The translations under genes were made by a program, and so were the position numbers. Below, piece by piece: positions 13,475 through 39,361 of a stretch of 64,000 nt of DNA. Source of the DNA: an uncultured Planctomycetaceae bacterium (lineage in GTDB: Bacteria; Planctomycetota; Planctomycetia; Planctomycetales; Planctomycetaceae); the NCBI GenBank assembly GCA_963815195.1, contig CAWFGE010000014.1, forward strand, positions 64,001 to 128,000, written 5' to 3'. The notes under the pieces are model-generated. The model was given only the letters and a program-made list of their open reading frames with translations, made no database searches and had not been told where the DNA came from. Within the stretch, counting starts at the first letter, position 1. Each line of letters starts with the position of its first letter.

Positions 13475-13481
13475 AGCTTTG

Positions 13482-16978: not shown

Positions 16979-17020
16979 TTGCTTCTACAGACTTCTTGGT
17001 TCGATTGAAGCGTAAAGTGA

Positions 17021-19395: not shown

Positions 19396-19518
19396 CCAAT
19401 CGCAAAACGGCAACCGCACGCCTTCTTTACCCTTATTGAGGCGTGCCCTGGCGGAATCAAATCGAAATCTGAACTTGGAAAGCCCTGTTGGTGAACCGAT
19501 ATCTCGATCAAAGCCTAT

Positions 19519-20958: not shown

Positions 20959-21386
20959 GTCAGTCTATCAGCATCGAACAACAACGGAAACTGGATCGGG
21001 AACTGGAACAGCCCGACCGCCGAGCCGCCTACGAACAACTGGGCGAGGCGCTCTACCGGGCGTTCGGCGGAACAGAGAACGTCAGCACGCAGGTGCGGAA
21101 CCTGCAACAGACTGCCGCCACCGCCCGGCGGTTTGCGGACATCGAAGCCTTCGTGAAAAACCAGATGGGCCGCAACACCAAGGATGCCAAAGCCTGGCGC
21201 GAACCCGGCGTGGGCCAGACCGTACTGGATCAACTGGCCGAACTGCGGGAGATCGCCCGGCAGCATGCCGAGACGGACGAAGACGCCCAAGCCAATCGGT
21301 TTTGGTTGGCCCGGAATTGGGTCCGGGTGGTCGTGGGAGCCTATCTCTACGAGAAAGCCGTGGCGGGAATGCCCTCGGCCCATTAA
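20955..21386 (+). CDS. Small alpha-helical subunit (Cas11/Csm2-like)
   Basis: 143 aa, helical, TQVRNLQQ..FVKNQMGR..AW..AYLYE; ATGA overlap with csx10. Confidence 0.7.
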   Translation: MSQSISIEQQRKLDRELEQPDRRAAYEQLGEALYRAFGGTENVSTQVRNLQQTAATARRFADIEAFVKNQMGRNTKDAKAWREPGVGQTVLDQLAELREIARQHAETDEDAQANRFWLARNWVRVVVGAYLYEKAVAGMPSAH

Positions 21387-21414
21387 ATGCCCTCGGCCCA
21401 TTAGGAGACTTTCC

Positions 21415-22107
21415 ATGCTTCAAGCGGAATGGAATCAGATGGCGGATGATGTGCTGGCCCCGGAGGCGAGGCGATTCTTGAACGAGTGGATCGCTACCGC
21501 CGAGAGCTTGCGCGACCAGGCTCTGCAAAAAGAAGAGGCGGAAATACAGTCGAGAGAGTCCGATCCCGAAAAGGTTGCCAAGCAGTTGGCGAAGCTCGAA
21601 ACGCGCTTGGCGAAGGTAGTGCCTTTTCCGATGGAGCGGAGTCAGATCGTGGGGCTCCGGCAGGTGGCGGTCAATCCGCCATCGCACTGGAACGATCACC
21701 AACCCTCGCTGGTGGCCTCGTTCGCCAATCATCAAAAAGAGAAATTCACACGCAGTTTAAGGAAAGAACAAGACGAGTATGAAAAACGGCGTCCAGGCAA
21801 ATCGTTCAAAGAGGTGATCTTGAAGTCTCAGGATTATTACAGGCAACAATTCTGGGAACGGGTGCGAAAGCTGACCGATCTACAAGACAACCCGCCCGGC
21901 GAATTGATTCAACTGGCTGTCGTCAGGAACTATCTCCCCGCCGAGTACCGGGATGAGGCCATGAAAGAGTTGAGCCGCAAGCAACAACGACTCCGTAAAG
22001 CGGAGCGGGACCGCTGGTTTGGTGAGCAATGGATCCCGCACACGATCCCGATGTTCTTCGAGTACTTTGCGGTCGAGTATTTGTTTGAAGCCGCGAAAGG
22101 GAAGTGA
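21415..22107 (+). CDS. Second, longer Cas11-like helical protein
   Basis: SQIVGLRQVA..FANHQKEK..FW..EYLFE parallels the preceding small subunit; aggag RBS. Confidence 0.55.
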   Translation: MLQAEWNQMADDVLAPEARRFLNEWIATAESLRDQALQKEEAEIQSRESDPEKVAKQLAKLETRLAKVVPFPMERSQIVGLRQVAVNPPSHWNDHQPSLVASFANHQKEKFTRSLRKEQDEYEKRRPGKSFKEVILKSQDYYRQQFWERVRKLTDLQDNPPGELIQLAVVRNYLPAEYRDEAMKELSRKQQRLRKAERDRWFGEQWIPHTIPMFFEYFAVEYLFEAAKGK

Positions 22108-22223
22108 CAAACGCAAAAAACGAACACGCACCCCACGATGCCCCGGGAAAAGGATGAAAAAGCCGCTTCTTTACCGTTTTGAAGTGGCTCGGGGCATTCA
22201 CGAGAATGGATCAAGGACAAGCA

Positions 22224-23093
22224 ATGACAAACAACACGACCGAGCGGGGGTTTTTCTCCCTGAAGCGAAAAATCCAGATCGAGGGCGAGATCACCTTCAC
22301 CACGCCTTGGCGGATTGGATCGGGTCGCGAGGGCGACATCAGCGATCTGGGAGTCCTGCTCTCTCCCACGGGCGAGCCGGTACTGCCGGGCAGCAGCCTC
22401 AAGGGTGTTTTGCGAAGCACCTGTGAACGATTGGCGTACGTCCTCGGGTTGGAGGCCTGCCAGTTGGACAGCCATTCCGCAGGGCTGTCCTATGTTTGCT
22501 CCAGCGATGTGAAAGCGTTTACCAATTGGAAAAAGGAACATCAAAAGGAATGGGAAAACCTTTCTGGTTTGCCGGCCGCCGAGCGGCTGGATTGGATCGC
22601 CCAGCACACCTGCGATGTCTGCCGGTTGTTCGGGTCGCCTTTGATGAAAAGCGTTTTGAAAATCTCCGACGGCCGACTCTCGGAATGGGCCGGCGTGGTG
22701 GAAGTTCGCGATTCGGTCGTATTGGACCGCGACAGCAAAACCTCGCGGAACAAGTTCGACTTCGATGTGGTCCCGCCGGCCAAGTTCGCCATCCGCTTGG
22801 ATTTGGACAACCCAACCGATGCCGATCTGGCCCTCTTGGGAGCGGGGCTGTTCGAGTGGACGGCGGGCGTGTCCATTGGCGGTTTCACCAGCCGGGGGTT
22901 GGGGCAGGCCGAACTCACCATTACCGGCCTGCGGTCGGCGAACCTTTCCGATCCCAAAGAGCAAACCCAATACCTACTCGGCAAAACCGCCGAGGAAAAG
23001 CTGACTCTCCAGAAGGATTGGGAAGGGGACTTTCAAGAGTTCATCGAAAAGCAGTTGAAGAAAATCAAAGATCAACAAGAAACGCAAGGTTAA
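22224..23093 (+). CDS. Cas7-group RAMP (Csm3/Csx7-like)
   Basis: WRIGSG..SD, PVLPGSSLKGVLRSTCE, CDVCRLFGS, IGGFTSRGLG. Confidence 0.88.
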   Translation: MTNNTTERGFFSLKRKIQIEGEITFTTPWRIGSGREGDISDLGVLLSPTGEPVLPGSSLKGVLRSTCERLAYVLGLEACQLDSHSAGLSYVCSSDVKAFTNWKKEHQKEWENLSGLPAAERLDWIAQHTCDVCRLFGSPLMKSVLKISDGRLSEWAGVVEVRDSVVLDRDSKTSRNKFDFDVVPPAKFAIRLDLDNPTDADLALLGAGLFEWTAGVSIGGFTSRGLGQAELTITGLRSANLSDPKEQTQYLLGKTAEEKLTLQKDWEGDFQEFIEKQLKKIKDQQETQG

Positions 23094-23204
23094 GAACGCT
23101 CGGCACAACGCACCCCAAAAAGAGGAAATAAGCCCTTTTTACGGTTTTTGCGGTGCGAGGCCGAACGCCTCGGATGAATAAACCCCAATCAAAAAGGTTC
23201 CTGC

Positions 23205-24161
23205 ATGCTCCGCAAATGGTTTTGTCAGGCTGAGATCACGATTGAGATTCACCCGGTCGATCCGGTTTTGGTGAAAAGCGGGTACGCCACGTTTTCGGGG
23301 CCGGACATGGTTCCCGTGCAAACTCTGCGGGATGGCGAAGAGACGTTCTATCTGCCAGGCACGTCGCTCAAGGGGGTGCTCCGCAGCCATCTGGAGCGGA
23401 TCTGCCGTTCGCTGAAGGAAGGCGTGACGTGTTTGCCGTATTATTTCGATGCGAAGAAAGACGCCCAGAACGTGCCCGTGGCCAGCGAGCAGGGGGCGAT
23501 CAGTTGCGGCAAGCGGTTGGAAGGCGACCGCACCACCGCCGAGATATACCGCCTCAGCTGCCCCGCGTGCCGGGTGTTCGGCTCCCTCAAGTTCAAGGGA
23601 CGAGCCGGGCTTTCGGATGCCTACGCGCTGCCCGACCATAAGCCCGTTCGGGAGGACCGCAACAACGTCTGCATCGACCGCTTTACCGGCGGTGTGGCTC
23701 AGGGACCGTTCGATATGACGGTGCTCGTCGGTGGGGTCTATCGAACCACGCTGCAAATCACCAACTTTGAACTCTGGCAACTGGCGGGGATTCACTTCCT
23801 CTTGGCCGATTTGGAAGATGGCCTGCTCAGCGTGGGCAGCGGGCAAAGCCGCGGCCTGGGCCGGGTGGAAGGGAAAGCCACCAGCTATCGACTGACCTAC
23901 CTGCAAAAGCCGCCGCGGTTGTGCGGGCTATTCCAGTTTGCGACGGCGGAGGAACGCCAAGCCTACGGCCTGTCCGCCGAACCCGGAAATCTGCCCGAGT
24001 TGCCCTCTCCCAAAAGTTCGCGAGGGCTGCGAACAGTCTACGATGTCACCGGCGAGTGGCAAAACTGGACGGAAACCCTGGCGGGCAGTTTCCCCGCGTT
24101 TCTGGATTGGTTCGCCGAGAACGTCGGTCCCCTCGCCAGTCAAATGGAGGTCCCCGCGTGA
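23205..24161 (+). CDS. Cas7-group RAMP (Csm3-like)
   Basis: YLPGTSLKGVLRSHLE, CPACRVFGS, IDRFTGG, VGSGQSRGLG. Confidence 0.88.
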   Translation: MLRKWFCQAEITIEIHPVDPVLVKSGYATFSGPDMVPVQTLRDGEETFYLPGTSLKGVLRSHLERICRSLKEGVTCLPYYFDAKKDAQNVPVASEQGAISCGKRLEGDRTTAEIYRLSCPACRVFGSLKFKGRAGLSDAYALPDHKPVREDRNNVCIDRFTGGVAQGPFDMTVLVGGVYRTTLQITNFELWQLAGIHFLLADLEDGLLSVGSGQSRGLGRVEGKATSYRLTYLQKPPRLCGLFQFATAEERQAYGLSAEPGNLPELPSPKSSRGLRTVYDVTGEWQNWTETLAGSFPAFLDWFAENVGPLASQMEVPA

Positions 24162-24748
24162 ACCCGCAGACTGCCATCTTGAAATCCGCCGACCTGAACG
24201 CGGCCGAGAAGGTGTCCGCACTGATTGCGGGTCTTCCCCGGCCGGACCGCCAGCCGCGTTGGGTGTGGCTGGCGGCCCCCGATGGGTGGACGTTGGATTT
24301 TCTCCCCAGCCCGGAAGGCTCGGTCCGCTGGTATGCCGCCCATGCTCGTCCGAAAGATGTTCCCTTGGCCGAGGTGCTGCCTCGCGCGGAGGAAGGGCGG
24401 GTGTTTGATCCCTCGGGCGAATTGCGGTTTCGGCGGTTGCCGCACCCCGGAGGGGCTTCGATTTGGCGGGCGGTCTTTTTGGGGGATGAGGAGTGGTTCC
24501 CCGATTGGGGCCACCCACAAAGCGAACTCGGTGGACTCCGTCGCACCCGCACGGCGTACTACCTCTGGGGTGAGCAAACCCCGCAGACGCCGCGCGAGTG
24601 GGTGGAGTTACAAATCCCGCACCGCTTCGACTACCCCATGTTGGATCCGAATGCCTCGCGGGTGACGCTGGAAGTGGAACTCTGGTGCGACCCCAGCGGG
24701 CGAGTCCACTTCCAACGCTTCTGCGGTCTGCGAGGAGAGGGCCGATGA
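24158..24748 (+). CDS. csx19: Csx19-like type III-D subunit
   Basis: EGRVFDPSGELRFRR, YYLWG, C-terminal FQRFCGL; lies directly before the insert-containing Cas7. Confidence 0.7.
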   Translation: MNPQTAILKSADLNAAEKVSALIAGLPRPDRQPRWVWLAAPDGWTLDFLPSPEGSVRWYAAHARPKDVPLAEVLPRAEEGRVFDPSGELRFRRLPHPGGASIWRAVFLGDEEWFPDWGHPQSELGGLRRTRTAYYLWGEQTPQTPREWVELQIPHRFDYPMLDPNASRVTLEVELWCDPSGRVHFQRFCGLRGEGR

Positions 24749-24864
24749 GAAAACGCAAAACGGTAAACGCCCCGCACCACACACCTAAAAAAGGGTAAAG
24801 AAAGGCTTCTTTACCCTTTTTTAGGTGCTTCCCCGAACGCATTGAGAAATCGAAAGGCCGACCG

Positions 24865-26016
24865 ATGCCCCAAGGACAAAGCTACTGGAACCCTTACCGT
24901 TGGGTGCCGATGCCCGACGGCCCGCCGCACCGGCAGACGCCGGCCTATTACCATCGTTTGGAAAACCTGCGGGGCCGCCTCACCTGCGACGTGGAAGCGC
25001 TGACACCGCTTCTGATCGGCGACGGGGGACCGTCGGACAACATCCAATTTGTGAAGACTCCCGGCGGCACGGCGTACGTTCCGGGGACTTCGCTCAAGGG
25101 GATGCTCCGGCAGGTGTTGGAGGTGGTCAGCGGATCGGCGGTGCCGTTCGGTCAGCGGAACAATGCCGATACGAACCATCAAGCCGATCAGGCCAGCGCC
25201 GGTGCCGGATCGAATTGGCAGTTGGACGCCGCCGCCCGGTTGTTCGGCTACATGGACAACAGTCGGTCTTACACAGGAGAGGTCCGGATGGGCGACGCCC
25301 CACTGAAGTCCTCACCCACCCCAGCTTCGGAATGGCCGGCCTACACAGTGGAAACTGGCACGCCCAAACCGACTCACACGGTTTTCTACAAAGGACACGC
25401 CCACGGCCTTGCCAAGTGGAAGTTCTATCACCACGCCACGGGCGCGGAGGGACTCCGGGAAAATTCCACCGTCCCTGAGAACAGCCTTCGGAAGGTCAGG
25501 CCGGCACCGTCGGACAGTCTGTTCGGGCCGTTTACGCTGGCGTTTCAGAACCTGACGGAAGCCGAACTCAACCTGTTGGCCTATGTTCTCGTTCTGGAAG
25601 AGAACGTGACCGTCACCCTCGGCCCCGAGGCGATGGGAACGGAGGAGGGCTGCACCTTGAGCGGACCGCTCCGGCACAAGCTCGGAGCCTGCAAACCGCA
25701 GGGCGGCGGCAGCATTCGGATCGTGCCTCTCCAGATGCAACTCGAAGCCAATCCGCTGGCCCGTTACCAAACCGGGAACCGCCAAGTCCACTCGCTCGAA
25801 GGCGAACCGCTTCAGCAGGAACTCCGCCGGCGGGCCAACCAGGTGGCGAAGCAGATTCCGCAAGCGACCCGCGAAGCTTTTCACGCGATGCTGGTTTACG
25901 ATCCCAACGATCCCCGCGCGAAGCATCTGCAGTATCCCGATTGGGACTTCTTTCAAAATGAGAAACAAAAGTCCAAGCTAGAGACTCCGCTCACGAAACT
26001 CAAACCGACCCTTTAA
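24865..26016 (+). CDS. Terminal Cas7-group RAMP of III-D type (NPY motif)
   Basis: WNPYRWVP, LTPLLIG, VPGTSLKGMLR, RLFG, KFYHH, HKLGACKPQGGGS. Confidence 0.85.
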   Translation: MPQGQSYWNPYRWVPMPDGPPHRQTPAYYHRLENLRGRLTCDVEALTPLLIGDGGPSDNIQFVKTPGGTAYVPGTSLKGMLRQVLEVVSGSAVPFGQRNNADTNHQADQASAGAGSNWQLDAAARLFGYMDNSRSYTGEVRMGDAPLKSSPTPASEWPAYTVETGTPKPTHTVFYKGHAHGLAKWKFYHHATGAEGLRENSTVPENSLRKVRPAPSDSLFGPFTLAFQNLTEAELNLLAYVLVLEENVTVTLGPEAMGTEEGCTLSGPLRHKLGACKPQGGGSIRIVPLQMQLEANPLARYQTGNRQVHSLEGEPLQQELRRRANQVAKQIPQATREAFHAMLVYDPNDPRAKHLQYPDWDFFQNEKQKSKLETPLTKLKPTL

Positions 26017-26036: not shown

Positions 26037-27170
26037 ATGACCACGGCGGCGACCACATTGATTTCCACGGTGGGAACGAGTTTGATCTATCCGAATTTGG
26101 TCAACCTCTCTCCCGACGATCCCGACCCGGCGCGGGCTGCGATTGCAACGGCGTTTGCCCGGCGGGATGCCGCCGCGGTGGCCGAGGGATTGACTCAGTA
26201 TCCGCCTACAGAACGCTTGTTAGGGGCGGAGATCAACTCCATTGCCAGCCTGTGGGAGAAGGGCTACCTGGCCGAATCCCCCAATCTGTTGTTCTGCCAC
26301 AGCCACACCGAAGACGGGCGGTTCCTGGGGGAGGTGTTGACGGCCTACTACCACCGGCGGTCGCTGCCGGTGGTCGAGGCCTGCGAGATCGAAGGCCTGC
26401 AAGATCACGACCCCCGCCAGTTCCGCACGCTGGGTCTGCGGAACCTCACCAAGCAGATTTCGCAGTCGGTGCGGAATTACGGGGCCGATTACACGGCCAT
26501 CAATGCCACCGGCGGTTACAAGGCCCAGATCGCGATTGCCGTGTTGATGGGCCAGGCTCTGGGCGTGCCGGTGTATTACAAGCACGAGCGGTTTTCCGAG
26601 ATCATCGCGTTTCCGCCCTTGCCGGTGGCCTTGGACTTCGGCGTGTGGATGGAGTGCAGCGGGCTGCTCTACGCCCTCGATCAGACGGGCGGCTGCCTGC
26701 CCCGGCGAGAGTTCGAGGAGGAATACAGCGAAACCCTGGCCAGCCTGGTCAACGAAGTCGAGATCGACGGCGAGTGGCACTGGGAACTCTCGCCCACCGG
26801 GCAGATTTTCCACGAGACCTTCCGGGGGCGGTTTCAGGCCCTGGCCCCGAAACTCCTCCCGCCTCCGGCCAAGGAGAAAAAGCCGCCCCGCCTGGAAGAC
26901 AGTGGGCACTTGAAAAGCCACTCGGAGATCCGCGCCTTTCTGGAAAAGGTGACCGCCGAGGTTCCGCAGGTCATCCGCTGCCAAACGCACTACTACAACC
27001 CCGACCTACCCGGCGAGACCCGCTTCCGCTTGAGCACGCACGGCGTCGAAGGCGTCTACAGCAACGGCAGTTACACGGTAAAGTTTTATGTGGAGTCCAC
27101 CGCCACCACTCCCAGCGAACAAACAGCCGTCATCGCCGCGTTAAACCAATGGCTGGCGGAGAGACACTGA
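26037..27170 (+). CDS. APE2256-family CARF protein (probable ring nuclease) with C-terminal extension
   Basis: ISTVGTSL, GAEINS, HSHTEDG, INATGGYK, VYYKHERF. Confidence 0.8.
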   Translation: MTTAATTLISTVGTSLIYPNLVNLSPDDPDPARAAIATAFARRDAAAVAEGLTQYPPTERLLGAEINSIASLWEKGYLAESPNLLFCHSHTEDGRFLGEVLTAYYHRRSLPVVEACEIEGLQDHDPRQFRTLGLRNLTKQISQSVRNYGADYTAINATGGYKAQIAIAVLMGQALGVPVYYKHERFSEIIAFPPLPVALDFGVWMECSGLLYALDQTGGCLPRREFEEEYSETLASLVNEVEIDGEWHWELSPTGQIFHETFRGRFQALAPKLLPPPAKEKKPPRLEDSGHLKSHSEIRAFLEKVTAEVPQVIRCQTHYYNPDLPGETRFRLSTHGVEGVYSNGSYTVKFYVESTATTPSEQTAVIAALNQWLAERH

Positions 27171-27221: not shown

Positions 27222-28153
27222 CTAATCCGGCCATTCTCTCATGAGGCGGCCCAGGCCGAAGACGGTGGATTTGCCCAGGTGCAGCCACTCGGCGGCGGCG
27301 AAGAGGGGGGCCAACGGACCGGGGCCTTGGGGGAGCGGCAGATCGCCGGTGATCGTGGGCAGTTCCAATCGCCGCTTTTGACTGCCGGAGTAGCGGGCAA
27401 ACGACTGGGGTTGTCCTCGGAACGCTCCGGCGGGATGGCGGCGCGCGATTTCTAGCCACGCGGCTTGATCGGCTTTCAAACGGCTGGCGGCTTCCGGAGG
27501 CAGAAAGGCTTCCGCTCGGCGGAGGGTGGCCATCGTTAAATCGACGAAGTTCGGTTCACGGACAAACTGCCGTTGGTAGAACATCCGCAGGCCCCATACA
27601 CGCAGATTGCATGGCCGACGCGGATCAAGATCACCCAAAGGCCACAACCCGAACCCCGGATGTAACCGCCCTGGCGAGAGCGTCGTGCCCTCCCATGCCA
27701 ACGGGCGAACTTCATCCAGAAAGAACGGTGTGCGATCACGACCCAATCCTTGGCAGCCGGTGTGCTCCCAGGCCCGCCACAGCCGATCCTGCTCCTTCGG
27801 AGAGACCTCGCCCATCAAGAGAAACTGCCATCGCGTAATAGGCTCGGACCGCGAGACGACCCCAGCATTAGCGGGCCGCACAATGTACCGCGGCCTCCGG
27901 TCGGGGCCATCTCCGAAGATCGTTTGATAATCCGCAGGAGAGATGCCCGCAGCCGGCTGCCCCACACGCCCCGGAGCTGCACGACCGTCGCCCGATGCCC
28001 CCGCGTGTCCAACCGCATCTCCCACGCCCGCACCCGCACCTGGGCCAACTCGGCCATGAGACGTTTTGTGAGAATCTCGACCGCGGGGACTCGTGCCGCC
28101 CCGTTCGTCTCCGCCGCTTGCCCCCGCCGTCCGTTCGCCAACTCTAATGCCAT
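27222..28153 (-). CDS. cas6: Cas6 crRNA-processing endoribonuclease (frameshift near 27945)
   Basis: LRGVWG near the N-terminus, GLGRDR, RYSGSQKR, C-terminal G-loop HLGKSTVFGLG. Confidence 0.85.
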
Positions 28154-28186
28154 GATTGCTCCGTTTGTCAGAACCTCCCCAGAATA

Positions 28187-28213
28187 TACGCCTTTCCTTT
28201 CCAAAAAGGGACA
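28187..28213 (-). promoter_or_regulatory. Putative ECF-sigma promoter of cas6
   Basis: Minus strand TGTCCCTT-N15-CGTA (plus strand tacg-N15-aagggaca). Confidence 0.65.
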
Positions 28214-28559
28214 CCCGGCACAGGAAATTTTAATGAAGACCTGCGGCCGAAAATCGATTCGCTGAGTCTTTCGTCTCCGACATTGGTTTTTTTGTTCCGA
28301 GGGGGCGATCCGCTGCGTATTTCTCTCAGTGGCGGAAGAGCACGACCTTGCGAACTGAGAGCGAACCGAATTTCCGAATCCGAAAAAGGGAGGACAATAA
28401 CATGGACTTGGCTGTGATGATTTGGTGGCTAGGCGGAGAACTTTGGGTGTCGGCCCGCACCCCGGAAAGGAAATTCTTGCCTGGCGGTGGTATTACTGGT
28501 AGGATCGGCCGCAATGAGAATCCGGTGACGCAACACCAGCGATTGCGAGGAGCGACCCG

Positions 28560-29304
28560 ATGGCGGGCCACAAGGCAGACCAAGAGCCAAACCATGGAGC
28601 AGATCACGAGCGGGAGCAGATCCGTCAATGGATCGAGGCGATCCTCGACGGCTCAGGCTCGGAGCACGACGACGCCATGCACCGCCTCTCGGAAGTGATT
28701 AGCCACGTTCGCGGCGCTTGCGGGTGCTCGGTCGCGGCAACCAAATCCTGCGAGATCTCATCGAGGAAGCGCCGTCGGTCATCTTCCAGAAGCTCCGTCA
28801 GTTCGACACCGAGCAGGAGTTCGAGCCGTGGTGTTGGATTGTATTGAAGAACGCCTTTCTGGATCGCTGCCGGAGAAAAAAGACCGACCCGCTCGCCGCG
28901 AGCGGATCGACAAATGCCGAGGACTCGGACCCCATCCAGCGCCTCTCCGACGATGAGGCGGCCGACTTTCGGCGACGACTGGAATCCAGCCTCGACCATA
29001 ACGAACCGTTCTCCGCAACCGATCAGAACGAGATCCTTACCTGGCGTCTCGACGACCGCATCGTATTGCTAACTCTGGGGCTTTTGTGGCAGAAGGTTCC
29101 TCCGGAACTGTGGTCGGACTGGCTCAGCGAGCGGAATGTCCCAGCACTTTTCCGCCTAAGGGTTGGGAGACTGAAACCCTTAAGCAACATTGCGAGATTT
29201 TGGGGGACGCGCTCGGTCAGAACTCTGAGGCGATCAAGCGGCGGTGGTATCGTTATCGGCAATTGCTGTCGAACTTGGAGTACGTGCGGGGGATCCAGCC
29301 ATGA
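28560..29304 (+). CDS. CRISPR-associated ECF-type sigma factor (two apparent frameshifts)
   Basis: Region 2-like DLIEEAPSVIFQKLRQFD..FEPWCWIVLKNAFLDRCRRKK; region 4-like HTH ILGDALGQNSEAIKRRWYRYRQLL; assembled from ORFs 28560, 28718 and 29086. Confidence 0.8.
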
Positions 29305-30017
29305 CCCAATCCTCTCAACCACAAGGGACGATCTGGCAGGGACTTCGCGACCCGCGTTCCGACTGTGGGAAGGCCGGTGCGGTCACGATGCCGCGATCTA
29401 GTTGGCAGCACACAGCCGAGCGGCATATTTGCCGATCGGTCGAGCCATGGGACGAAGTATTTCCCGCAGAGATTGTGACGGCCCTGCAACGATTCGGACG
29501 AAACCAGGAAACACTGAGTTGCGAGCAGTGGGAGATCGCTTCGAACCTGCTCGGTGAGCAGGTTCGGCAGTCCCTGGATCGGCCTTTGGTGATTCTGTAT
29601 CTGCAACGCCAGTTCTACCAGGACGAACCCTATGCCGAGCGTTGGCTGCTTCTGTTACCTTGCGGCGGGCTGATGGCGATCCGTAGCGTCCAGCATGGCG
29701 GCAGCGTCCTGACGTGCTTTTTCATGGAGCAGTCTGGTCGCGGCCATCAGCTTGACAACCGCTGGAAGTATGCGTTGTTCTTCCTAAGAAACAAATACTC
29801 CGAACAGGATCCTAAGACAGGGCGACGGCATCCGCCCCACCCTGCCTATGCCGTTCCGATCCCTCGCCGGTTGGCCGACGAGGACCGCGCCGAGATTTGT
29901 TTTGTCACGGAACACGAGTGGCACCTGCCGGGTCCGGCTCGGCTCGAAACGAATATGCTGCGCCCGTGGCCGACCCACGAGAAGGACACGACCCGTTCGG
30001 GCGCCGGCCGTGGATGA
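29301..30017 (+). CDS. Uncharacterised protein translationally coupled to the sigma gene (positional analogue of Csx31)
   Basis: ATGA overlap with sigma; 238 aa; WQHTAERH and VLTCFF motifs. Family not confirmed. Confidence 0.55.
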   Translation: MTQSSQPQGTIWQGLRDPRSDCGKAGAVTMPRSSWQHTAERHICRSVEPWDEVFPAEIVTALQRFGRNQETLSCEQWEIASNLLGEQVRQSLDRPLVILYLQRQFYQDEPYAERWLLLLPCGGLMAIRSVQHGGSVLTCFFMEQSGRGHQLDNRWKYALFFLRNKYSEQDPKTGRRHPPHPAYAVPIPRRLADEDRAEICFVTEHEWHLPGPARLETNMLRPWPTHEKDTTRSGAGRG

Positions 30018-30048
30018 AGCCTAAAGACACCGAGTGAGAACCTCAGCG

Positions 30049-31100
30049 ATGACTGACCGAAGATCGAATCTGCCAGACGATGAAGCCGCATTCCGGCGCG
30101 ATGAAGTGGAGCAAGCCTACGCGCTCCCGGGGCTAGACGTCTTCGATCACGGGGGGCCAGTCGATGACGCCGTGCGCAAGAGCGGCGCTTCAATTGGCCC
30201 AAGCGATCGGGTACTGCCGGCTGTTCGGAGTCGAGATTGGCGAACTCGATGGCGTGCTCCCGGCGGACGTGGCCATCGCAGCGTGCCGGGAACTCGCCGA
30301 TCGGGTAGCCGCCTGGACAGAGCAACTCCAGGAACTGCCAGAACGGTATTTCGGAGCAATCGACGGATTCGAGGCCGAAGCGGCCTCCGACGACGTGTTG
30401 ATCGCCTGCATGGACTCGTGGGCGACCACCGCGGCGATCGAGGAAGCCTACACGCGCTGTGGGCCGGAGGACGACGTCGATACATTCTCCGCCGAATTGG
30501 ACCGGCTTGGGGACGCCCTGGACGAGTTTGACCGAAAGGCCCGCGAGCACGCCGACTTGTTGTCCACGCTCGCGAAGACCAACCTCTTGTCGAACTGGCG
30601 GTCGTATCTCGTCGAGCCGTGGAGTGAATTGCTGCCCTGGTGGCTGGATGGAACGCTTGAACGAACGGCTGAGGCCGTCGACCAGCTGGTGGCGGCCACC
30701 GTACCCGGTGAGTCCGACCGCCGTGCGGAGAAGGCCCGAGACCGATCCCAGATCACCGGCCCGAGCCCGCCTTGCGCCCGCGATGGCCGCTGCCGGTCCT
30801 TTGGAAGCCGGCAAAACCTATTCCTGGGATTCTCCAGATGGACGGTACCAGGCATTGCTCACGCTGACCACGACTTGGCAGGAGACGGTTCGGCTCGGGT
30901 TTGTGCACCGCGAGAGCGGAGCACCGACCGCCGAACTCAAGGGCCGCAAGGCCCGACTCGGCGATTTGCCGCCGGTGCCCATCGACGACAAGGGCCTCGC
31001 AGAGTTCGCCACCGCGTCGGTTCTTGGGCAGCCGTCGCGACTGCATCTCGATGAGGACGATCGAAACTGGACGCCCGTTGGACCGGAAGACAGTCTGTAA
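30049..31100 (+). CDS. Putative anti-sigma / protease substrate (analogue of Csx30/CalpT); two apparent frameshifts
   Basis: Acidic helical N-domain ending LLPWWLDG, a low-complexity linker with AMAAAG, then a beta-rich C-domain; assembled from ORFs 30034, 30164 and 30459. Confidence 0.55.
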
Positions 31101-31151
31101 TCCGCTGGTGGAAAGCTGGCTCCATCGGATCCGGCAAGTTCTGACCTTAGC

Positions 31152-32561
31152 TTGTTTGGATGCGCCATGGCCGTCACTTGGCTGAACCGATCATCTGCGG
31201 ACTTGACCCCGGCTGCCGCCTGCCAGCTTGTCGAGTGGCTCGGTCCCTTCGCGACTTGGTGTCTTCAGGCGGACACTTTAAACAAAGCCGCGGCCTCCTA
31301 CCGCCATCGCGGTGTGGCGGTCCTGGCCGAAGCGCTTGAGAAGCCGTGTGGACTGCCCCAGGAGCCGGGAACGTGCGGCGTTCTGTTCGTCCGCAAACGA
31401 AACGACTACCCCGGCCTGCGGGATGCCTTCGCCTGGCCGCTCCGATGGGTCGCCGAGGCGGAGCATGAACGAGTTCTCCCGGTAAAGTTACTGGCCGAGG
31501 CCGAGCGGGTTCGCGAGACGCTGATCCAGCAACTGGGTGATCTGTTGCCGACAGAGCGCTGGGGACTGCGGCCGGGGCTTGGCGGACCAGCCGACTGGCC
31601 TGACCTCCGGCACATGGACGTTTCCTGTGACTCGGCCTGGGTCCCGCTGGCGGGCGGTCTCCTCGCCGCGTCTCTGGAGGGACAGGTCGACCGCACAGTC
31701 TGGGCCACAGGAGCCTGGCAGGGCGGCATCGCAGCGGTCGGCTTTCTGCCGGACAAGCTCCGGGAAGCCGTCCGCCTGGCCGTACAGCGCGTGTTTGTGC
31801 CGACACAAAATCTCGACGAAGCCCATCAACTGGTCGAATCACACAACCTCGACCTGTCGATCGGGGAGTTGCGGCACGACAAACCTCAAGCGGCCGAAGC
31901 GCTCGGGCAATTCCTGGAGGAGTTTTCTGTCCTGCCGCCCCGCATCCCCGACGATGCGGAGAATTTCGAGCGACGTTGCCGCGCGTATCTCCGTCATCCA
32001 CGCGCGGAGAGAGCCCGCGACTATTATCTTTCGGACCTGCTGCCGGACCTCGCCGACCAAAAGATTCGCGGTCCTCTTGCGACAGTCTGGCCGGATTGGC
32101 ATCCCGATCTGCTGGTGGCTGTGGTCAGCGGCGGGTGGGAGCTGATCCCGCTTCTCTCCGAGGCTCTCCGGCCGCAGCGATGTCTGCTGGTCTACACCGA
32201 GGGGGAGAAAGAAATGCTGAAGGCCACCGACCGGGTGGAAGCAGAGCTCAAATTGCAAGACATCCCGGTCGACCGCATCTCGTTCGACGACGCCGACACG
32301 CTGGTCGCCGAGTTGCCGGAAGCATTGCCGGTCACGCTCGAATCGTCCGATCCCGAGGGCGTGTTGCTGGATCTCACGCTCGGAACGAAACTGATGACTC
32401 TGGCCGTCGACCATGCCGTCCAGCCAGGCCATCGCCTGATCTACATTCAGAGCCGGCCAGGGGCGGGCCGGCGAAGCGATCCCGCTTCCCTCTGCCCGTG
32501 GACGACGCAAGTCCGCCCGGATGGCACCCGCCCCCCCCTGACGCTGGCACGGCCCTCGTGA
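31152..32561 (+). CDS. Lon-family (S16) serine protease fused to a C-terminal CARF domain
   Basis: VSCDSAWVPLAGGLLAA..VWATGAW..VGFLPDKLREA..VFVPTQN matches the Lon Ser-Lys dyad pattern (41 aa apart). CARF: LVAVVSGGWELI..LRPQRCLLVYT..LLDLTLGTKLMTLA..LIYI. Confidence 0.8.
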   Translation: MFGCAMAVTWLNRSSADLTPAAACQLVEWLGPFATWCLQADTLNKAAASYRHRGVAVLAEALEKPCGLPQEPGTCGVLFVRKRNDYPGLRDAFAWPLRWVAEAEHERVLPVKLLAEAERVRETLIQQLGDLLPTERWGLRPGLGGPADWPDLRHMDVSCDSAWVPLAGGLLAASLEGQVDRTVWATGAWQGGIAAVGFLPDKLREAVRLAVQRVFVPTQNLDEAHQLVESHNLDLSIGELRHDKPQAAEALGQFLEEFSVLPPRIPDDAENFERRCRAYLRHPRAERARDYYLSDLLPDLADQKIRGPLATVWPDWHPDLLVAVVSGGWELIPLLSEALRPQRCLLVYTEGEKEMLKATDRVEAELKLQDIPVDRISFDDADTLVAELPEALPVTLESSDPEGVLLDLTLGTKLMTLAVDHAVQPGHRLIYIQSRPGAGRRSDPASLCPWTTQVRPDGTRPPLTLARPS

Positions 32562-32814: not shown

Positions 32815-33090
32815 ATGCACTGGATTATCGCCTACGACATCCATGCCGACCGTCGCCGCGCCCGCGTCGCCCGCCGACTGGAACGCGCCGGACTTCGGGT
32901 ACAGCAGTCGGTGTTCCTGGTCGAAGAATCCAGTCCGCAAATCCACGACCTGTTGCACGAGCTGTCTCGCCTGATCGCGAAGTCAACGGACCGGGTAGCG
33001 GCATGGCCGTTGCAGGCAAACTGGATTGCCGCGTTTGAGGAGGTCGGTCTGTCGTCCGGCCCCGTCCACGAGCCCACCGTCATCTGGTGA
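32815..33090 (+). CDS. cas2: CRISPR-associated Cas2
   Basis: WIIAYDI..RRARVARRLERAGLRVQQSVF; gaggag RBS. Confidence 0.93.
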   Translation: MHWIIAYDIHADRRRARVARRLERAGLRVQQSVFLVEESSPQIHDLLHELSRLIAKSTDRVAAWPLQANWIAAFEEVGLSSGPVHEPTVIW

Positions 33091-33163
33091 AAACATGCCG
33101 CAACGAAACCACGACCCTTCCAAAACCCCAACTTCACGCCGCCGGGCGGCCGGTTCCAAGACG

Positions 33164-34120
33164 ATGGCCGAGACCGTGCATTTAGTGGGTCCTGGCGTGC
33201 TCCGGGTCCGTAACCGGATGCCGTGCTGGGAACCGATCGACGGCGAAGCGTTGCTGTTGCATCCGGAGCGGCTCCAGACCCTCCTGCTCCACGGTTCGGT
33301 GGATCTGACCGGGGCGGCCTTACGGGCGCTGTGGGGGCACGGGGTCCAGGTCAGTTTTCTGAGCGTCGAAAGCCACCGCTTATTGGGACGCATCAACCCA
33401 CCAGCGGCGCGGGCCGGGGCGCTGGCGTTTTGGCAACACCAGGCTGCCTGTGATGCCGCGTTTGCGTTGGAGCAGGCGAGGCGCCTCGTGCGGGAGAAGC
33501 TCGAAAGCATCGAGCGGGTCGCCGCCCATCTCCGACGTCACGGCCACGCCGAGGCCTCCGATCTCCGCCATTTAATCGGCGCGGATCTGCGGCAGGTCGA
33601 CCGGGCCACCTCGCTGGAAAGCCTCCGCGGTATCGAAGGCGCCTCGTCCGCCCGCTGGCACCGTCTGCTCCGCACGTCGTTTCCGAGGCACCTGCCCTAC
33701 CCGGGGCGGAAGGCCCATCCGCCGACCGATCCGGTCAATGCCCTGCTCTCGCTCGGTTACACCTTTCTGTTGGGCCGGACCCAGACCTTGATCGACGCGA
33801 TTGGTCTCGACCCCTTGGTCGGCGTCTATCACCAACTGCGTTCCGGACGGCCCGCCCTGGCCTGCGATCTGATCGAGCCGTTCCGCGTGCCGGTCGTGGA
33901 CCAGATGGTGCTCGCCCAGATCCGGCAGCGATTCTTCCTCAAACATCATTTCCACGAAACGTTGCAGGGCGTCCGGCTCCAGCAGTCGGACTTTCGGCGA
34001 TTCCTCGAGGCCTTCGAGCAGCGACTGACTGAAACCCAAGACGGGCAGACCTTGCGCGACCACATCGAAAGTCGGGTGGAGCAATTCGCCCGCGAGGTAC
34101 GAAGCCACGCGAAGCAGTGA
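33164..34120 (+). CDS. cas1: CRISPR-associated endonuclease Cas1
   Basis: LRGIEGASS, PPTDPVNALLSLGY, GLDPLVGVYH, ALACDLIEPFR. Confidence 0.93.
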   Translation: MAETVHLVGPGVLRVRNRMPCWEPIDGEALLLHPERLQTLLLHGSVDLTGAALRALWGHGVQVSFLSVESHRLLGRINPPAARAGALAFWQHQAACDAAFALEQARRLVREKLESIERVAAHLRRHGHAEASDLRHLIGADLRQVDRATSLESLRGIEGASSARWHRLLRTSFPRHLPYPGRKAHPPTDPVNALLSLGYTFLLGRTQTLIDAIGLDPLVGVYHQLRSGRPALACDLIEPFRVPVVDQMVLAQIRQRFFLKHHFHETLQGVRLQQSDFRRFLEAFEQRLTETQDGQTLRDHIESRVEQFAREVRSHAKQ

Positions 34121-35427
34121 GACGACTGAAAAAGCGAACCAGCGACACCGCTGGATGCAGGTCATTCCGCAGACCGGTCGGAAGGGACAGTCATGGCAGC
34201 CATCGAGCGAAGAGTGTGGGCTATGCGGCGATCTGCGACGTCGAGATCCTCCGGGAGGCTTGGCATGCGACGCGACGGGGCGGGTCGGCTCCCGGTGTTG
34301 ACGGGCAAACCCTTGCCGAGTTCGAGGCTGACGTCGAGCAACGGTTACGGAAGCTGGCAAATGATCTCCGCAACCGGCGCTATTGCCCCTCACCCTTTCG
34401 CCGATCGTTTTTGAGAAAAACCGGCGGCGGCCATCGCCCACTCGCAATTCCTACCATTCGGGACCGCATCGTTCAGCAGGCCATCCGTCAAGTGCTTGAA
34501 CGCGTTCTCGAACCAAACTTTGCGGCCTCCAGCTTTGCTTACCGTCCCAACCTGGGCGTCGAGCAGGCAATGGATCGGTTGCTTAAGCAGTTGCACCGCG
34601 GGCACACCTGGGTGCTGGAGTCGGACGTGGAGAACTTCTTCGATTCGATTCATCTTCAGACCCTTTGGGACCGTCTGGGGAACGTCGTTGCCGATCGTGA
34701 GTTGCTCGACTTGGTGCGCACCTCACTCACTGCCGGTGTGGCGGGAACACGGACCGTCCGAAAATCCTTCCAGCCTCGCTGTGGCCTGCCCCAAGGCAGC
34801 CCCCTTTCGCCATTGCTGTCCAATTTCTACCTGACACCCTTCGACCGGGTGTTGGAGAAACAAGGCTACGCGCTGACGCGCTACGCGGACGACCTGGTCG
34901 TGAGCTGCCCCGATCGTCGGCAGGCAGCGCGAGCCCGAGAGGACGTGACCGCCGCGCTCCGATCGTTGCGGCTCCGAGTCAGCGTGCCGAAGACCCGAAT
35001 CATCAATGCCCGGTGGGAGTCGTTCGAGTTCCTGGGGTTCCTGCGACACCCGCGCTACCTCTGGCCCTCGCCCGCCAAGGTCACTCAGTTCGAGACCTGG
35101 ATCAAGCAGGTCACCGAACCGCCGGCACGCACTTCGGTCGACAGTCTAATCAAGGAGTTGAATCCACCTCTACGGAGTTTCGGTTATTATTATCGCCGCT
35201 GCGATGTAGGCCGCTTGTTCCGACGGTTCGACCGAATCGTTTGCCGCCGCCTTACGCAGCTTGCGCGGTCGATCGAAAACAGGACGCCGCGAACAGGGTC
35301 CGGTTGGGCCGGGCGCGGGCTCGTATCCTTGACGTCAATAAGGGATGGACGTGATCCGCATCCCCCGGACGGAAGAGACGGTTATGGCGGCCCGATTGTC
35401 CCTTGCGGGAACCGCACTTCCCCCTGA
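34117..35427 (+). CDS. Stand-alone CRISPR-associated reverse transcriptase (group II intron-like)
   Basis: APGVDG, RPLAIPTIRDRIVQQA, SFAYRP, SDVENFFDSI, GLPQGSPLSPLLSNFYL, RYADD, FLGF; start overlaps the cas1 stop; leader follows. Confidence 0.9.
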   Translation: MRRLKKRTSDTAGCRSFRRPVGRDSHGSHRAKSVGYAAICDVEILREAWHATRRGGSAPGVDGQTLAEFEADVEQRLRKLANDLRNRRYCPSPFRRSFLRKTGGGHRPLAIPTIRDRIVQQAIRQVLERVLEPNFAASSFAYRPNLGVEQAMDRLLKQLHRGHTWVLESDVENFFDSIHLQTLWDRLGNVVADRELLDLVRTSLTAGVAGTRTVRKSFQPRCGLPQGSPLSPLLSNFYLTPFDRVLEKQGYALTRYADDLVVSCPDRRQAARAREDVTAALRSLRLRVSVPKTRIINARWESFEFLGFLRHPRYLWPSPAKVTQFETWIKQVTEPPARTSVDSLIKELNPPLRSFGYYYRRCDVGRLFRRFDRIVCRRLTQLARSIENRTPRTGSGWAGRGLVSLTSIRDGRDPHPPDGRDGYGGPIVPCGNRTSP

Positions 35428-35715: not shown

Positions 35716-38700
35716 GTCTCAACGAACGCCCCCACTTCGAGGGGATTGAAACGGGAGCAGTCGGTGCAGCGGGAGCAGTCGGAGCAGTGTCTCAACGAAC
35801 GCCCCCACTTCGAGGGGATTGAAACAGCGAGTCCGTCTTGGACCCGCCGCCCGCCCCCCCTGTCTCAACGAACGCCCCCACTTCGAGGGGATTGAAACGT
35901 AAACGCCTGAGCGAACACGAGACCGATGTTTTCGTCTCAACGAACGCCCCCACTTCGAGGGGATTGAAACGCTACGATGAGCCACTCACCGCGAGGCTGG
36001 TCAGGTCTCAACGAACGCCCCCACTTCGAGGGGATTGAAACTCGGGCTGGTGGAAGACGTCGAAGAGGAGCTTCCTGCGTCTCAACGAACGCCCCCACTT
36101 CGAGGGGATTGAAACTCCTCGCGCGATCGGCTGCAGTAAACGGTCTGGAAGTCGTCTCAACGAACGCCCCCACTTCGAGGGGATTGAAACCCGCGTTCGC
36201 GTCCGTCACGATAAAGTCAGTCGCGTCTCAACGAACGCCCCCACTTCGAGGGGATTGAAACAATGGCCCCGCAGACGCACGGCGTTGGACATTTAGCGTC
36301 TCAACGAACGCCCCCACTTCGAGGGGATTGAAACGGGGGGGGACTGCGTGCATTCGCGTGTCCGCCGAATGTCTCAACGAACGCCCCCACTTCGAGGGGA
36401 TTGAAACGCTGATGTCCTTCGCAAAGTCTCCCAGGAGGCCCCGTCTCAACGAACGCCCCCACTTCGAGGGGATTGAAACCCGGCTCAATTTCGCTTCAAT
36501 GCCTTCATTTGATAGAGTCTCAACGAACGCCCCCACTTCGAGGGGATTGAAACGTGGCATGTTTGAGCCAAGAGCCTCTCGCTCTATCGTCTCAACGAAC
36601 GCCCCCACTTCGAGGGGATTGAAACAACCCTCGCAATTGCCCAAGTATCCCAGACATCACCGTCTCAACGAACGCCCCCACTTCGAGGGGATTGAAACCG
36701 TGCCAGCATCGTCCCAGTTGACCCGCATGTCGCGTCTCAACGAACGCCCCCACTTCGAGGGGATTGAAACCGGTGGTGCTGTCGGGGGTCGGCATGATGT
36801 TGGCCATGTCTCAACGAACGCCCCCACTTCGAGGGGATTGAAACAATTGCGGCAACAGCCTTTTGGTGGTCCCGTGCGGATTGTCTCAACGAACGTCCCC
36901 ACTTCGAGGGGATTGAAACCAGACCCAGGGTCCGACGCCAATAATTTACGCGTCTCAACGAACGCCCCCACTTCGAGGGGATTGAAACCTTGAGCAACTG
37001 GATGAGTTCATCCGTGGAAAGAACGTCTCAACGAACGCCCCCACTTCGAGGGGATTGAAACTAGAGCATTGCAAGCCTGACCCAGTGTGATGGTTTTGTC
37101 TCAACGAACGCCCCCACTTCGAGGGGATTGAAACTCCATTCAGGAATGTGCTGACAAGTCGGCATTTTCTGGTCTCAACGAACGCCCCCACTTCGAGGGG
37201 ATTGAAACTAGAGTTCAAGCTCTTCGCTAACCCGTGAGCCCCAGTCGTCTCAACGAACGCCCCCACTTCGAGGGGATTGAAACAAGCTGGTGCAGCACCT
37301 GCCGCAGAGGCTCGATTATGGTCTCAACGAACGCCCCCACTTCGAGGGGATTGAAACGTCGAGGCGATCAGTGCGGGTCATCTTGCACACGAACCGTCTC
37401 AACGAACGCCCCCACTTCGAGGGGATTGAAACCATACACGGCAATGAACGTAAACAGCAGAATGCCGAGTCTCAACGAACGCCCCCACTTCGAGGGGATT
37501 GAAACCGAACAGTTATGCACCCGCTTACGCGAGTTATAACAAGTCTCAACGAACGCCCCCACTTCGAGGGGATTGAAACGAGAAATCCATGCGGTCACCG
37601 GCATCAGCATCGTCGCGTCTCAACGAACGCCCCCACTTCGAGGGGATTGAAACTATCAATTCGTGCATTTGTCATGGCAATTCTCCCCTCGCGTCTCAAC
37701 GAACGCCCCCACTTCGAGGGGATTGAAACGGAGAGCGTGATTGTGACGACTGCCCCGGAATAGTTCACGTCTCAACGAACGCCCCCGCTTCGAGGGGATT
37801 GAAACAAGAGAAGATTCTTCCCACAACTGTCGACATAGGTCGGCGTCTCAACGAACGCCCCCACTTCGAGGGGATTGAAACGACGGTCAGCCATTGGTCC
37901 GGGTCGCCGGGGTCGCGTCTCAACGAACGCCCCCACTTCGAGGGGATTGAAACACGATCGAAGAGTCTGACGTGCTGACGAACGTGGAATCGGGTCTCAA
38001 CGAACGCCCCCACTTCGAGGGGATTGAAACTCTAACTTATCCTCTATAGTAACTTGTGTATAAGGTCTCAACGAACGCCCCCACTTCGAGGGGATTGAAA
38101 CGGCGGGTTTTTTTTACGCCCACACGCCCCACAACGCGTCTCAACGAACGCCCCCACTTCGAGGGGATTGAAACATTCAGTGGGGCGGTCCGTGGACATC
38201 CCCAGGCGTCCCGTCTCAACGAACGCCCCCACTTCGAGGGGATTGAAACTTGATTGACTGCGGAGACGACGCCGGGGTCGTTGCGTCTCAACGAACGCCC
38301 CCACTTCGAGGGGATTGAAACAATACTGGCTCTGGGAATGTCACAAGAGGAATCAACGTCTCAACGAACGCCCCCACTTCGAGGGGATTGAAACCTGGGG
38401 GGGACTGTGTAGTGCATTCGCGTGTCCGCCGAAGTCTCAACGAACGCCCCCACTTCGAGGGGATTGAAACCTTTCGCAACCTTCCTTAGAAGGGAGACCG
38501 CCCCAGTCCGTCTCAACGAACGCCCCCACTTCGAGGGGATTGAAACAAGTCCCGCATCGGAGGGTTCCGGCGGGGTTCTCTCGTCTCAACGAACGCCCCC
38601 ACTTCGAGGGGATTGAAACACGACAGGCGGGCAGTCCCAGAGATGGGCCACGTCCAGTCTCAACGAACGCCCCCACTTCGAGGGGATTGAAACATTTGTC

Positions 38701-39361
38701 TCCAAAGTTTCGCATTGGCATTTTTGTCTCGTCTCAACGAACGCCCCCACTTCGAGGGGATTGAAACGCGTCGCCAGACGCCGCGCACCGAACAGGGGCA
38801 CAAAATCGTCTCAACGAACGCCCCCACTTCGAGGGGATTGAAATGTTGTTGCTGTCGATTATCCAGCCGGACTTTTCTCGTCTCAACGAACGCCCCCACT
38901 TCGAGGGGATTGAAACGTCCCGGGGCGACCCCGTAGAGCGTGGAACGACTCGTCTCAACGAACGCCCCCACTTCGAGGGGATTGAAACAATTGCGGCAAC
39001 AGCCTTTTGGTGAGCCTGTGCAAATGTCTCAACGAACGCCCCCACTTCGAGGGGATTGAAACTTCAGGTCGGCGTGGCTCGGTGGGGAGGCTGTGTAGTG
39101 GTCTCAACGAACGCCCCCACTTCGAGGGGATTGAAACAGTCTTCGAGTCCGTCTCGTTGAGGGGGTCCTCTAGTCTCAACGAACGCCCCCACTTCGAGGG
39201 GATTGAAACGTCTTCGTTATCTGCAAATGCTGATAAGAAGGCCAAAGTCTCAACGAACGCCCCCACTTCGAGGGGATTGAAACGTGATATTCAGTTGATC
39301 GGCAAGGTTCGGCCCGTCAATCTCGTCTCAACGAACGCCTCCACTTCGAGGGGATTGACGG
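35716..39361 (+). CRISPR. CRISPR array, 50 repeats / 49 spacers (manual count), repeat GTCTCAACGAACGCCCCCACTTCGAGGGGATTGAAAC (37 nt)
   Basis: Regular 37-nt repeats with ~32-41-nt spacers; 3' ATTGAAAC handle; CCCC/GGGG stem; degenerate last repeat at 39325. Confidence 0.99.

Follow-up and report, generated by a model that had tools for sequence, protein, structure and literature searches.

A candidate CARF-Lon protease and sigma factor signalling cassette in a type III-D CRISPR locus of an uncultured planctomycete

A 64,000-nucleotide stretch of DNA from an uncultured Planctomycetaceae bacterium (GenBank assembly GCA_963815195.1, contig CAWFGE010000014.1, positions 64,001–128,000 of the forward strand; hereafter the window, numbered from its first letter) contains a four-gene cassette at 28560–32561 within a type III-D CRISPR-Cas locus. 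The four genes lie on the + strand between cas6 (27222–28214) and cas2 (32815–33090), and encode in order an extracytoplasmic function (ECF)-like sigma factor (S), a basic protein (U), an acidic two-domain protein (T) and a Lon protease fused to a CARF domain (Lon-CARF). The cassette is probably a signalling arm of the type III-D system, in which the protease, activated by cyclic oligoadenylate (cOA), would cut T and free the sigma factor. The logic of this relay (protease, anti-sigma factor, sigma factor) is supported by the conserved gene order and by the model of the sigma factor in complex with T. The CARF-Lon fusion family is already catalogued (PADLOC PDLC01981), and the cassette represents a version, not characterised so far, of a defence circuit that is already known.

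A first-pass annotation of the window, made from the sequence alone, had described these four co-oriented genes as an ECF sigma factor, a translationally coupled 238-residue protein, an acidic two-domain protein and a Lon-CARF protease, had placed them between cas6 and cas2, and had noted a Cas10 with an intact GGDD motif and no HD domain. These descriptions were upheld throughout. Its wider interpretation is partly supported: the relay logic and the choice of sensor were right, and the proposed likeness to Csx30 and Csx31 was seen in gene position only.

The Lon-CARF protease

The Lon-CARF gene (31167–32561, + strand, with an alternative TTG start at 31152) is intact and encodes a protein of 464 residues, which was assigned by PADLOC, structure modelling, Foldseek and profile searches. 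The protein consists of a helical N-terminal region, a Lon domain (approximately residues 58–256, at 31338–31934) and a CARF domain (approximately residues 310–450, at 32094–32516) with the motif D-x-T-x-G-x-K. Residues 5–441 match positions 9–400 of the 408-position PADLOC profile CARF_m2--CARF_LON (PDLC01981) with an E-value of 3.7e-87. The model, computed with an alignment of 13 relatives, has a mean predicted local distance difference test score (pLDDT) of 91. Residues 58–256 superpose on Lon proteolytic domains with VIA Z-scores of 16–19 and a root mean square deviation of 2.6–3.0 Å for about 170 residues, and Foldseek retrieves the same fold at an E-value of about 5e-8. Residues S156, K197, D402 and G406 are invariant. 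The Ser156/Lys197 dyad, whose codons lie at 31632 and 31755 as first proposed, is present in 13 of 13 aligned relatives, and the serine and lysine are also kept in five further loci that were checked, including two fused forms of the protease (L034 and L035, see below). With a full-length profile match, a Lon fold containing the Ser-Lys dyad and a CARF sensor, the protein is a member of the CARF_m2--CARF_LON family.

Sequence comparisons indicate that the sensor consists of one CARF domain, about 150 residues long, rather than of a SAVED domain, and that the closest CARF domain of solved structure is that of Thermus thermophilus Csm6. Positions 291–456 of the family profile align with residues 26–187 of Csm6 (E 1.2e-10), both proteins carry the motif D-L-T-x-G-T-K, and Foldseek also matches the Csm6 CARF domain (E 2.4e-7). 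The remaining matches of the family profile among PDB sequences are Can1 (8e-6), Cam1 and Can2 (2e-4) and Card1 (4e-3), and the Pfam family CARF_Card1 matches the protease at 9.7e-4, under the Pfam cut-off. No SAVED match to the protease was found in PADLOC or among PDB sequences (E ≤ 1), and no CalpL chain, the known SAVED-Lon protease, was among the PDB sequence matches of the family profile at E ≤ 1.

Protein T and its predicted complex with the sigma factor

T is encoded at 30049–31100 on the + strand by a gene with two frameshifts, which was delineated from tblastn and hidden Markov model matches in three frames and from the model of an orthologue in a related locus (L011) that is 43% identical to the core piece of the window protein. 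The isoelectric points are 4.2–5.3 for the pieces in the window and 4.4–4.8 for the orthologues. In the L011 model, a helical domain (residues 1–222, pLDDT mostly 80–97) is followed by a linker with pLDDT below 50 (residues 224–265) and a beta-rich domain (residues 265–362). A profile of T had no matches to PDB sequences at E ≤ 10, and the full-length model, searched whole rather than as single domains, had no Foldseek match to solved structures at E ≤ 0.001. A wide VIA search with the whole model returned spectrin, plakin and syntaxin-type helical bundles alone, with Z-scores of at most 8.2, values that helical models reach as noise. T appears to represent a new protein family and, judging from the models, is a probable anti-sigma factor and protease substrate.

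The L011 orthologues of T, U and S were co-folded as three chains with purpose-made shallow alignments (9, 5 and 5 rows). The sigma chain obtained an interface score (ipSAE, interaction prediction score from aligned errors) of 0.83 as the median of three runs, compared to 0.00 for the best of three controls. Of 157 solved complexes, 116 attain this score, as do 2 of 215 mismatched pairs; these proportions hold only roughly in this case, as a three-chain job with shallow alignments differs from the calibration. At least 68% of the contacts agree between runs, and the partner has a pLDDT of 77 or more. In the model, S touches T residues 98–227 through its region-2 stretch (residues 94–108 and 134–152) and through a C-terminal stretch (residues 246–290), and the predicted interface stops where the disordered linker of T starts. 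Anti-sigma factors clamp sigma factors through both regions, as T does in the model. The complex model supports the binding of S to the helical domain of T, an interaction that the first-pass annotation had anticipated.

The sigma factor and protein U

The gene for S (28560–29304, + strand) contains two frameshifts and was identified with Pfam, NCBIfam, tblastn and a family profile. The middle piece of the frameshifted window copy matches Pfam Sigma70_r2 with an E-value of 1e-4 (22.5 bits); intact orthologues score 35–37 bits for region 2, against a cut-off of 24. The NCBIfam model sigma70-ECF matches S at 26.3 bits, under its cut-off of 42.9. The S family profile matches the ECF factor SigE in the PDB at 3e-5, and also SigR and SigH. 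Region 4 has no Pfam match; the conserved C-terminal stretch of the protein is the part that touches T in the complex model. The C-terminal piece of window S, in a third frame, fits the end of the family consensus (...PFPPxG...LA..G.S...). No 7-mer is common to at least four of the upstream regions of six S genes. Words of the GGAAC type, as commonly found in ECF −35 boxes, precede four of these six genes (L012, L014, L016 and L038, twice each in L016 and L038), possibly by chance; they are not clearly present upstream of S in the window.

U is an intact, basic protein of 238 residues (29301–30017, + strand; isoelectric point 7.7), recognised by its homologues in related loci (L011, L014, L012 and L038). 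Its start overlaps the stop of S as ATGA (29301–29304). U belongs to no Pfam, NCBIfam or PADLOC family and has no meaningful PDB match by profile, and neither U nor the L011 T protein gave a usable result in the Protein Atlas. In the proposed relay, U, which is translationally coupled to S, would be an accessory protein. The coupling, seen as an ATGA or 4-nucleotide overlap in the window, L038 and L014, and the contacts of U with S in the complex model (U residues 26–32, 95–105 and 119–128) could also be taken to indicate that U is the true anti-sigma factor, with T serving as a scaffold that brings the U–S complex to the protease, or with the protease cutting U or S. This arrangement is very improbable: the sigma score fell to 0.00 when T was replaced and U retained, and U is missing from one locus (L016) and replaced by an unrelated protein in a second subtype of the cassette, T being the constant component.

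Relatives and gene order

At E ≤ 0.001, an exhaustive profile search for the protease family returned 1741 representatives of sequence clusters; 492 pass a cut-off of E ≤ 1e-30. Most have lengths of 440–500 residues. A word-based homologue search returned four proteins, and a four-row protease alignment used as query gave five of the related loci. In the phylum of the window, matches at E ≤ 1e-10 were obtained in 12 of 401 sampled genomes, with about six of these matches being full length, and eight of 61 closer relatives have a protease match at E ≤ 0.001. Neighbouring genes were counted in 18 loci from other genomes, the named ones being Gemmatales, Gemmataceae, Pirellulales and Planctomycetota metagenome-assembled genomes and one such genome binned as Alcaligenaceae. 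The proteases of L036–L040 match the PADLOC profile CARF_m2--CARF_LON with E-values of 1e-50 to 1e-116.

A T-family gene is located beside or near the protease gene in 13 of the 18 loci. The T profile was built from ten of the T sequences; four loci independent of it, L037, L038, L039 and L040, are matched with E-values of 2.8e-33, 2.1e-54, 9.7e-11 and 9.1e-11, respectively. The order S-U-T-protease is found in the window, L011, L014 and L038, the four genes occur in a different order in L012, and L016 has the cassette without U. A second subtype with the order S'-U'-T-protease is found in L019, L037, L039 and L040. S' is a longer sigma-like protein related to S by homology (hhalign probability 97.4%, E 1.5e-11). 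Additionally, a database protein of 853 residues (P0029) has T fused to the N-terminus of Lon-CARF; its residues 5–213 are 40% identical to L011 T (E 5e-28) and 41% identical to the window T piece (E 6e-33). This fusion is known from the protein entry alone and may be a gene-calling artefact.

Two other fusions involve the protease. A single open reading frame (ORF) of 1117 residues (L035:7828–11184, − strand, genome G194) contains Lon-CARF (residues 154–538) followed by Cas10 (residues 563–1016), and sits in a type III-D locus with Csx16. In L034:9591–11663 (genome G267), a 690-residue Lon-CARF protein has a C-terminal Csx16 domain (E 7.4e-31) and adjoins a type III-D locus that also encodes an RT-Cas1 fusion and a CARF-TM protein. 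Neither T nor S was found near the L035 fusion or at the L034 fusion.

The genes for cas or CARF-effector proteins are present in the fetched flanks of seven of the 18 loci: L018 (Cas6), L032 (Cmr4 and Cmr6), L033 (Csx1), L034, L035 and L038 (type III-D) and L037 (Cas1). The cassette is thus CRISPR-linked in the window, and this does not hold for the protease family overall. Five genomes whose protease flanks are free of cas genes were searched for Cas10, and four have a strong Cas10-profile match elsewhere. On a tentative reading, CARF-Lon, T and S may constitute a distinct, widespread and portable module (at least 492 clusters at E ≤ 1e-30, the fetched loci being mostly Planctomycetota), in which a dimeric protease and an anti-sigma factor of unseen fold would act in trans to type III Cas10 signals far from CRISPR loci, the protease having been welded to Cas10 or to a Csx16 ring-nuclease-like domain in some lineages.

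Evidence against the relay and alternative explanations

Several observations weigh against the proposed relay. T was not found in four of the 18 loci (L013, L034, L035 and L036) and has a weak match in L033, and S or S' is present in nine of the 18. The fusions of the protease to Csx16 in L034 and to Cas10 in L035, where T and S are lacking, indicate that the protease can work in other set-ups. No cas genes are present in the fetched flanks of 11 of the 18 loci, some of which are on short contigs. In the fifth of the genomes searched for Cas10, G049, which is 99% complete and carries a full S-U-T-protease cassette (L014), the Cas10-profile match is weak (E 1.3e-5), and the cassette there may be an orphaned sensor module, with no type III cyclase to serve it. 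No likeness of T to any known anti-sigma factor was detected in sequence or fold, and U, absent from L016 and unrelated to the second gene of the second subtype, is left unexplained. Finally, in the window itself, S and T together contain four frame changes within about 2.2 kb, of which public reads cover one; should the other three prove genuine, the module would be non-functional in this genome.

As an alternative, Lon-CARF could be a toxic or broad-range protease that is activated by cOA and causes abortive infection, with T as an inhibitor, chaperone or adaptor and with the sigma factor controlling only the operon. The protease occurs without T or S in L034, L035 and L036, its fusion to Cas10 or Csx16 suggests T-independent roles, and a 2022 review, in its available text, speculates on host killing for predicted CARF-Lon fusions (PMC9704534). 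This explanation is unlikely. T accompanies the protease in most of the loci counted and is fused to it in P0029; it is predicted to hold both sigma regions in the manner of an anti-sigma factor; and the long disordered linker between its two folded domains has the layout of a cleavable tether. Moreover, both known CRISPR protease-sigma circuits, as far as the available accounts of them extend, cut a sigma-binding protein.

The frameshifts require a separate assessment. The first-pass annotation had noted indels in the cassette, and two frame changes were located in each of S and T. S changes frame at approximately 28699–28730 and 29133–29146, so that three frames are used in all, two of which are matched by orthologues in tblastn searches. 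T changes frame at 30184 and somewhere within 30690–30800. The joined frames of S and T have no internal stops. From frame translations, a further frameshift is possible in cas6 near 27900, where the N-terminal part may lie in another frame; a comparison with the Cas6 of L018 backs the C-terminal part of the window protein alone (E 5e-9). Public DNA runs that share 0.11 and 0.07 of sampled words with the window gave 151-nucleotide contigs at a depth of 2–3, with 0–1 substitutions each. At 30184, a base is missing in the reads, which restores the frame of T (depth 2.6, one 151-nucleotide contig). The reads also have an extra G after 29998, which would move the stop of U to 30035–30037 and make the protein six codons longer, and a T-to-C change at 30173. 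The indels cluster in 27800–31100 (two each in S and T, one difference from the reads in U and possibly another in cas6), and the remainder of the window looks indel-free.

Should the S and T genes, and perhaps cas6, truly be frameshifted, the cassette would be a decaying remnant in this genome, with only the protease and U being made and with defence left to a second CARF protein of the locus (see below) and to RNA cleavage by the effector complex. The density of frame changes in S and T, together with the read difference in U, is consistent with such decay, as are the long intact ORFs elsewhere in the window (1294, 721, 604 and 543 residues) and the 49 CRISPR repeats, all of exactly 37 nucleotides despite runs of C5 and G4, which argue that the assembly is not indel-ridden in general. 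Decay is nevertheless unlikely. The reads restore the frame at the sole site they cover, and the joined S and T frames lack in-frame stops, a pattern that old pseudogenes seldom show and that consensus errors among varying strains typically leave. In addition, cas6 appears to be affected, which points to a local problem of sequence quality rather than to selection on S and T. Errors of local assembly or of the strain consensus, in a defence region that varies, are a likelier cause of the frameshifts than decay.

The type III-D locus and a second CARF protein

The type III-D CRISPR-Cas locus occupies the + strand of the window from about 17.0 to 39.3 kb. The first gene, cas10 (17027–18652, + strand), matches Pfam Cas10-Cmr2_palm2 (E 2e-15) and PADLOC Cas10 (E 2.3e-67), the latter over profile positions 4–413 of 414 and from residue 1 of the ORF. 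Frame translation shows that the ORF begins at palm 1 and that the cyclase motif GGDD is encoded at 17903; no HD domain was detected in Cas10 or upstream of it with Pfam, PADLOC or frame translation. This HD-less Cas10 is the presumed source of cOA for the cassette. In the region of about 5 kb upstream (11850–17020), no + strand ORF has the usual third-position GC bias, and a 355-residue ORF at 15444–16511 is without a family match. A tandem-repeat search of 11800–17100 for a second CRISPR array was empty.

The genes at 18628–26016 (+ strand) encode the effector proteins, which according to NCBIfam and PADLOC form a multi-subunit III-D complex: Csm3/Cas7 proteins of the RAMP (repeat-associated mysterious protein) superfamily, Csx10/Cas5-IIId, a Csm2-like protein, Csx19 and a large Cas7. 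NCBIfam matches include Csx10 (E 1.4e-48) and Csx19 (E 1.8e-9), and PADLOC matches include Cas5_IIId, Cas7_IIId, Csm3 and Csm2, with Cas10/Cas10d in the locus. By these family matches, the combination of Cas10, Csx10 (Cas5-IIId), Csx19 and several Cas7 RAMP proteins assigns the locus to type III-D.

The first-pass annotation had regarded the protease as the only clear cOA effector of the locus. This is contradicted by a gene at 26037–27170 (+ strand), directly upstream of cas6, which encodes a CARF7 family protein with a DUF2103-type C-terminal part. The protein matches Pfam Cas_APE2256 (E 5.8e-34), PADLOC CARF7--CARF_DUF2103 (E 2.4e-122) and the Cami1-type profile CARF_RelE (E 2.6e-52), as well as an 'APE2256 family' chain in the PDB (8phj/8phb, E 1.2e-14). 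It is a putative second cOA sensor of the locus.

The cas6 gene is on the − strand (PADLOC Cas6 E 2.3e-27), and the Cas6 profile matches only residues 104–324 of the ORF, from profile position 58. Downstream of the cassette are the adaptation genes cas2, cas1 and a separate reverse transcriptase (32815–35427, + strand; Pfam and PADLOC), with Pfam matches to Cas2 (E 1.4e-15), Cas1 (E 1.1e-61) and RVT_1 (E 1.4e-35) plus GIIM. The reverse transcriptase (34117–35427) is of the group II intron type and is encoded by its own gene beside cas1; the type III-D locus of L034 has an RT-Cas1 fusion of 962 residues (L034:13717–16605). The locus ends with a CRISPR array (35716–39283, + strand; Tandem Repeats Finder and pattern search) of 49 repeats of 37 nucleotides, ending in ATTGAAAC, and 48 spacers. 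The pattern search for the repeat gave 49 matches, 46 exact and three with one mismatch, where none are expected.

Proposed mechanism

In the proposed relay, recognition of target RNA would lead the HD-less Cas10 to synthesise cOA through its GGDD motif, and cOA would bind the CARF domain of Lon-CARF. Since single CARF domains create a ligand pocket only as a pair, the protease is probably a homodimer. Once activated, its Ser-Lys Lon domain would cut the disordered linker of T, which has about 40 residues. The N-terminal helical domain of T is predicted to hold S by regions 2 and 4, and the cut would free S to redirect RNA polymerase to a presumed regulon.

Csm6 of T. thermophilus responds to cyclic tetra-adenylate (cA4). 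This nucleotide is the likeliest ligand of the Lon-CARF sensor, because cA4-activated effector families include the nearest CARF relatives of solved structure and because the CARF7 protein in the same locus falls into the cA4-activated Cami1 group. A third reason is that effectors sharing one locus nearly always use one signal, according to the available text of a published analysis (PMC11229360).

Comparison with known protease-sigma circuits

To our knowledge, CRISPR circuits that lead from a protease to a sigma factor have been elucidated in just two cases, those of the SAVED-Lon protease CalpL and of the CHAT protease Craspase. The cassette resembles CalpL-CalpT-CalpS in combining a Lon-type Ser-Lys protease with a fused cOA sensor, and in having an ECF-like sigma factor that is predicted to be bound by a neighbouring protein. 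It differs in its sensor: CalpL has a SAVED domain and stacks as a monomer into filaments, whereas the single CARF domain here implies a dimeric pocket. Further differences are the domain order (helical N-terminus, Lon, CARF), the absence of detectable likeness between T and CalpT, the additional conserved gene U and the frequent location of the cassette away from cas genes. Lon-CARF shares its locus with a second effector, of the cA4-type Cami1/CARF7 group, and known loci such as that of Ca. Cloacimonas similarly contain both CalpL and Cami1, as described in the available part of a preprint (10.1101/2024.05.08.593097).

The Craspase system of type III-E (Cas7-11, Csx29 TPR-CHAT, Csx30, Csx31 and RpoE) has the gene order sigma factor, small protein, larger sigma-binding protein and protease, and the cassette follows the same order. 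The Craspase protease is of the CHAT type and is docked on Cas7-11, the RNA-bound effector; the protease here is of the Lon type and is proposed to be reached by a diffusible nucleotide through its CARF domain. A Csx30/Csx31-like gene set had been suggested at the outset, and this suggestion holds for gene order only. No likeness was detected for T, in sequence or fold, or for U, in sequence: profiles of T and U have no matches to PDB chains that would relate T to Csx30 or U to Csx31, and neither protein has an NCBIfam or Pfam family. With respect to T. thermophilus Csm6, the likeness is confined to the CARF domain, as the effector of Csm6 is a C-terminal HEPN RNase and the Lon domain here is N-terminal to CARF.

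The PADLOC entry CARF_m2--CARF_LON describes the same protein family as the window protease and consists of a protein profile alone. CARF-Lon fusions are termed 'bioinformatically predicted' in the available text of the 2022 review (PMC9704534), which guesses at host killing by proteolysis and there mentions no sigma or anti-sigma partners. The accessible part of the 2021 CalpL preprint states that CalpL was 'originally termed Lon-CARF', although it has a SAVED4 domain, and CARF-Lon is not included in the accessible part of a 2024 survey of type III effectors. In agreement with the first-pass annotation, literature searches found no characterised CARF-Lon protease; a 2020 paper on CARF classification, which lies outside these searches, may already describe the neighbouring genes.

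Implications

If the proposed relay is correct, the cassette would represent a third combination of sensor and protease, suggesting that this circuit has been assembled repeatedly from different sensors, proteases and tethers, and T, a protein without known relatives, would join the anti-sigma factors. A protease that is triggered by a nucleotide and cuts at a single site would also be a candidate part for RNA-sensing reporters. The family offers a defined system for studying the activation of a Lon protease by a dimeric CARF domain, and the cassettes located far from cas genes bear on the question of whether cOA signalling may operate as a cell-wide network.

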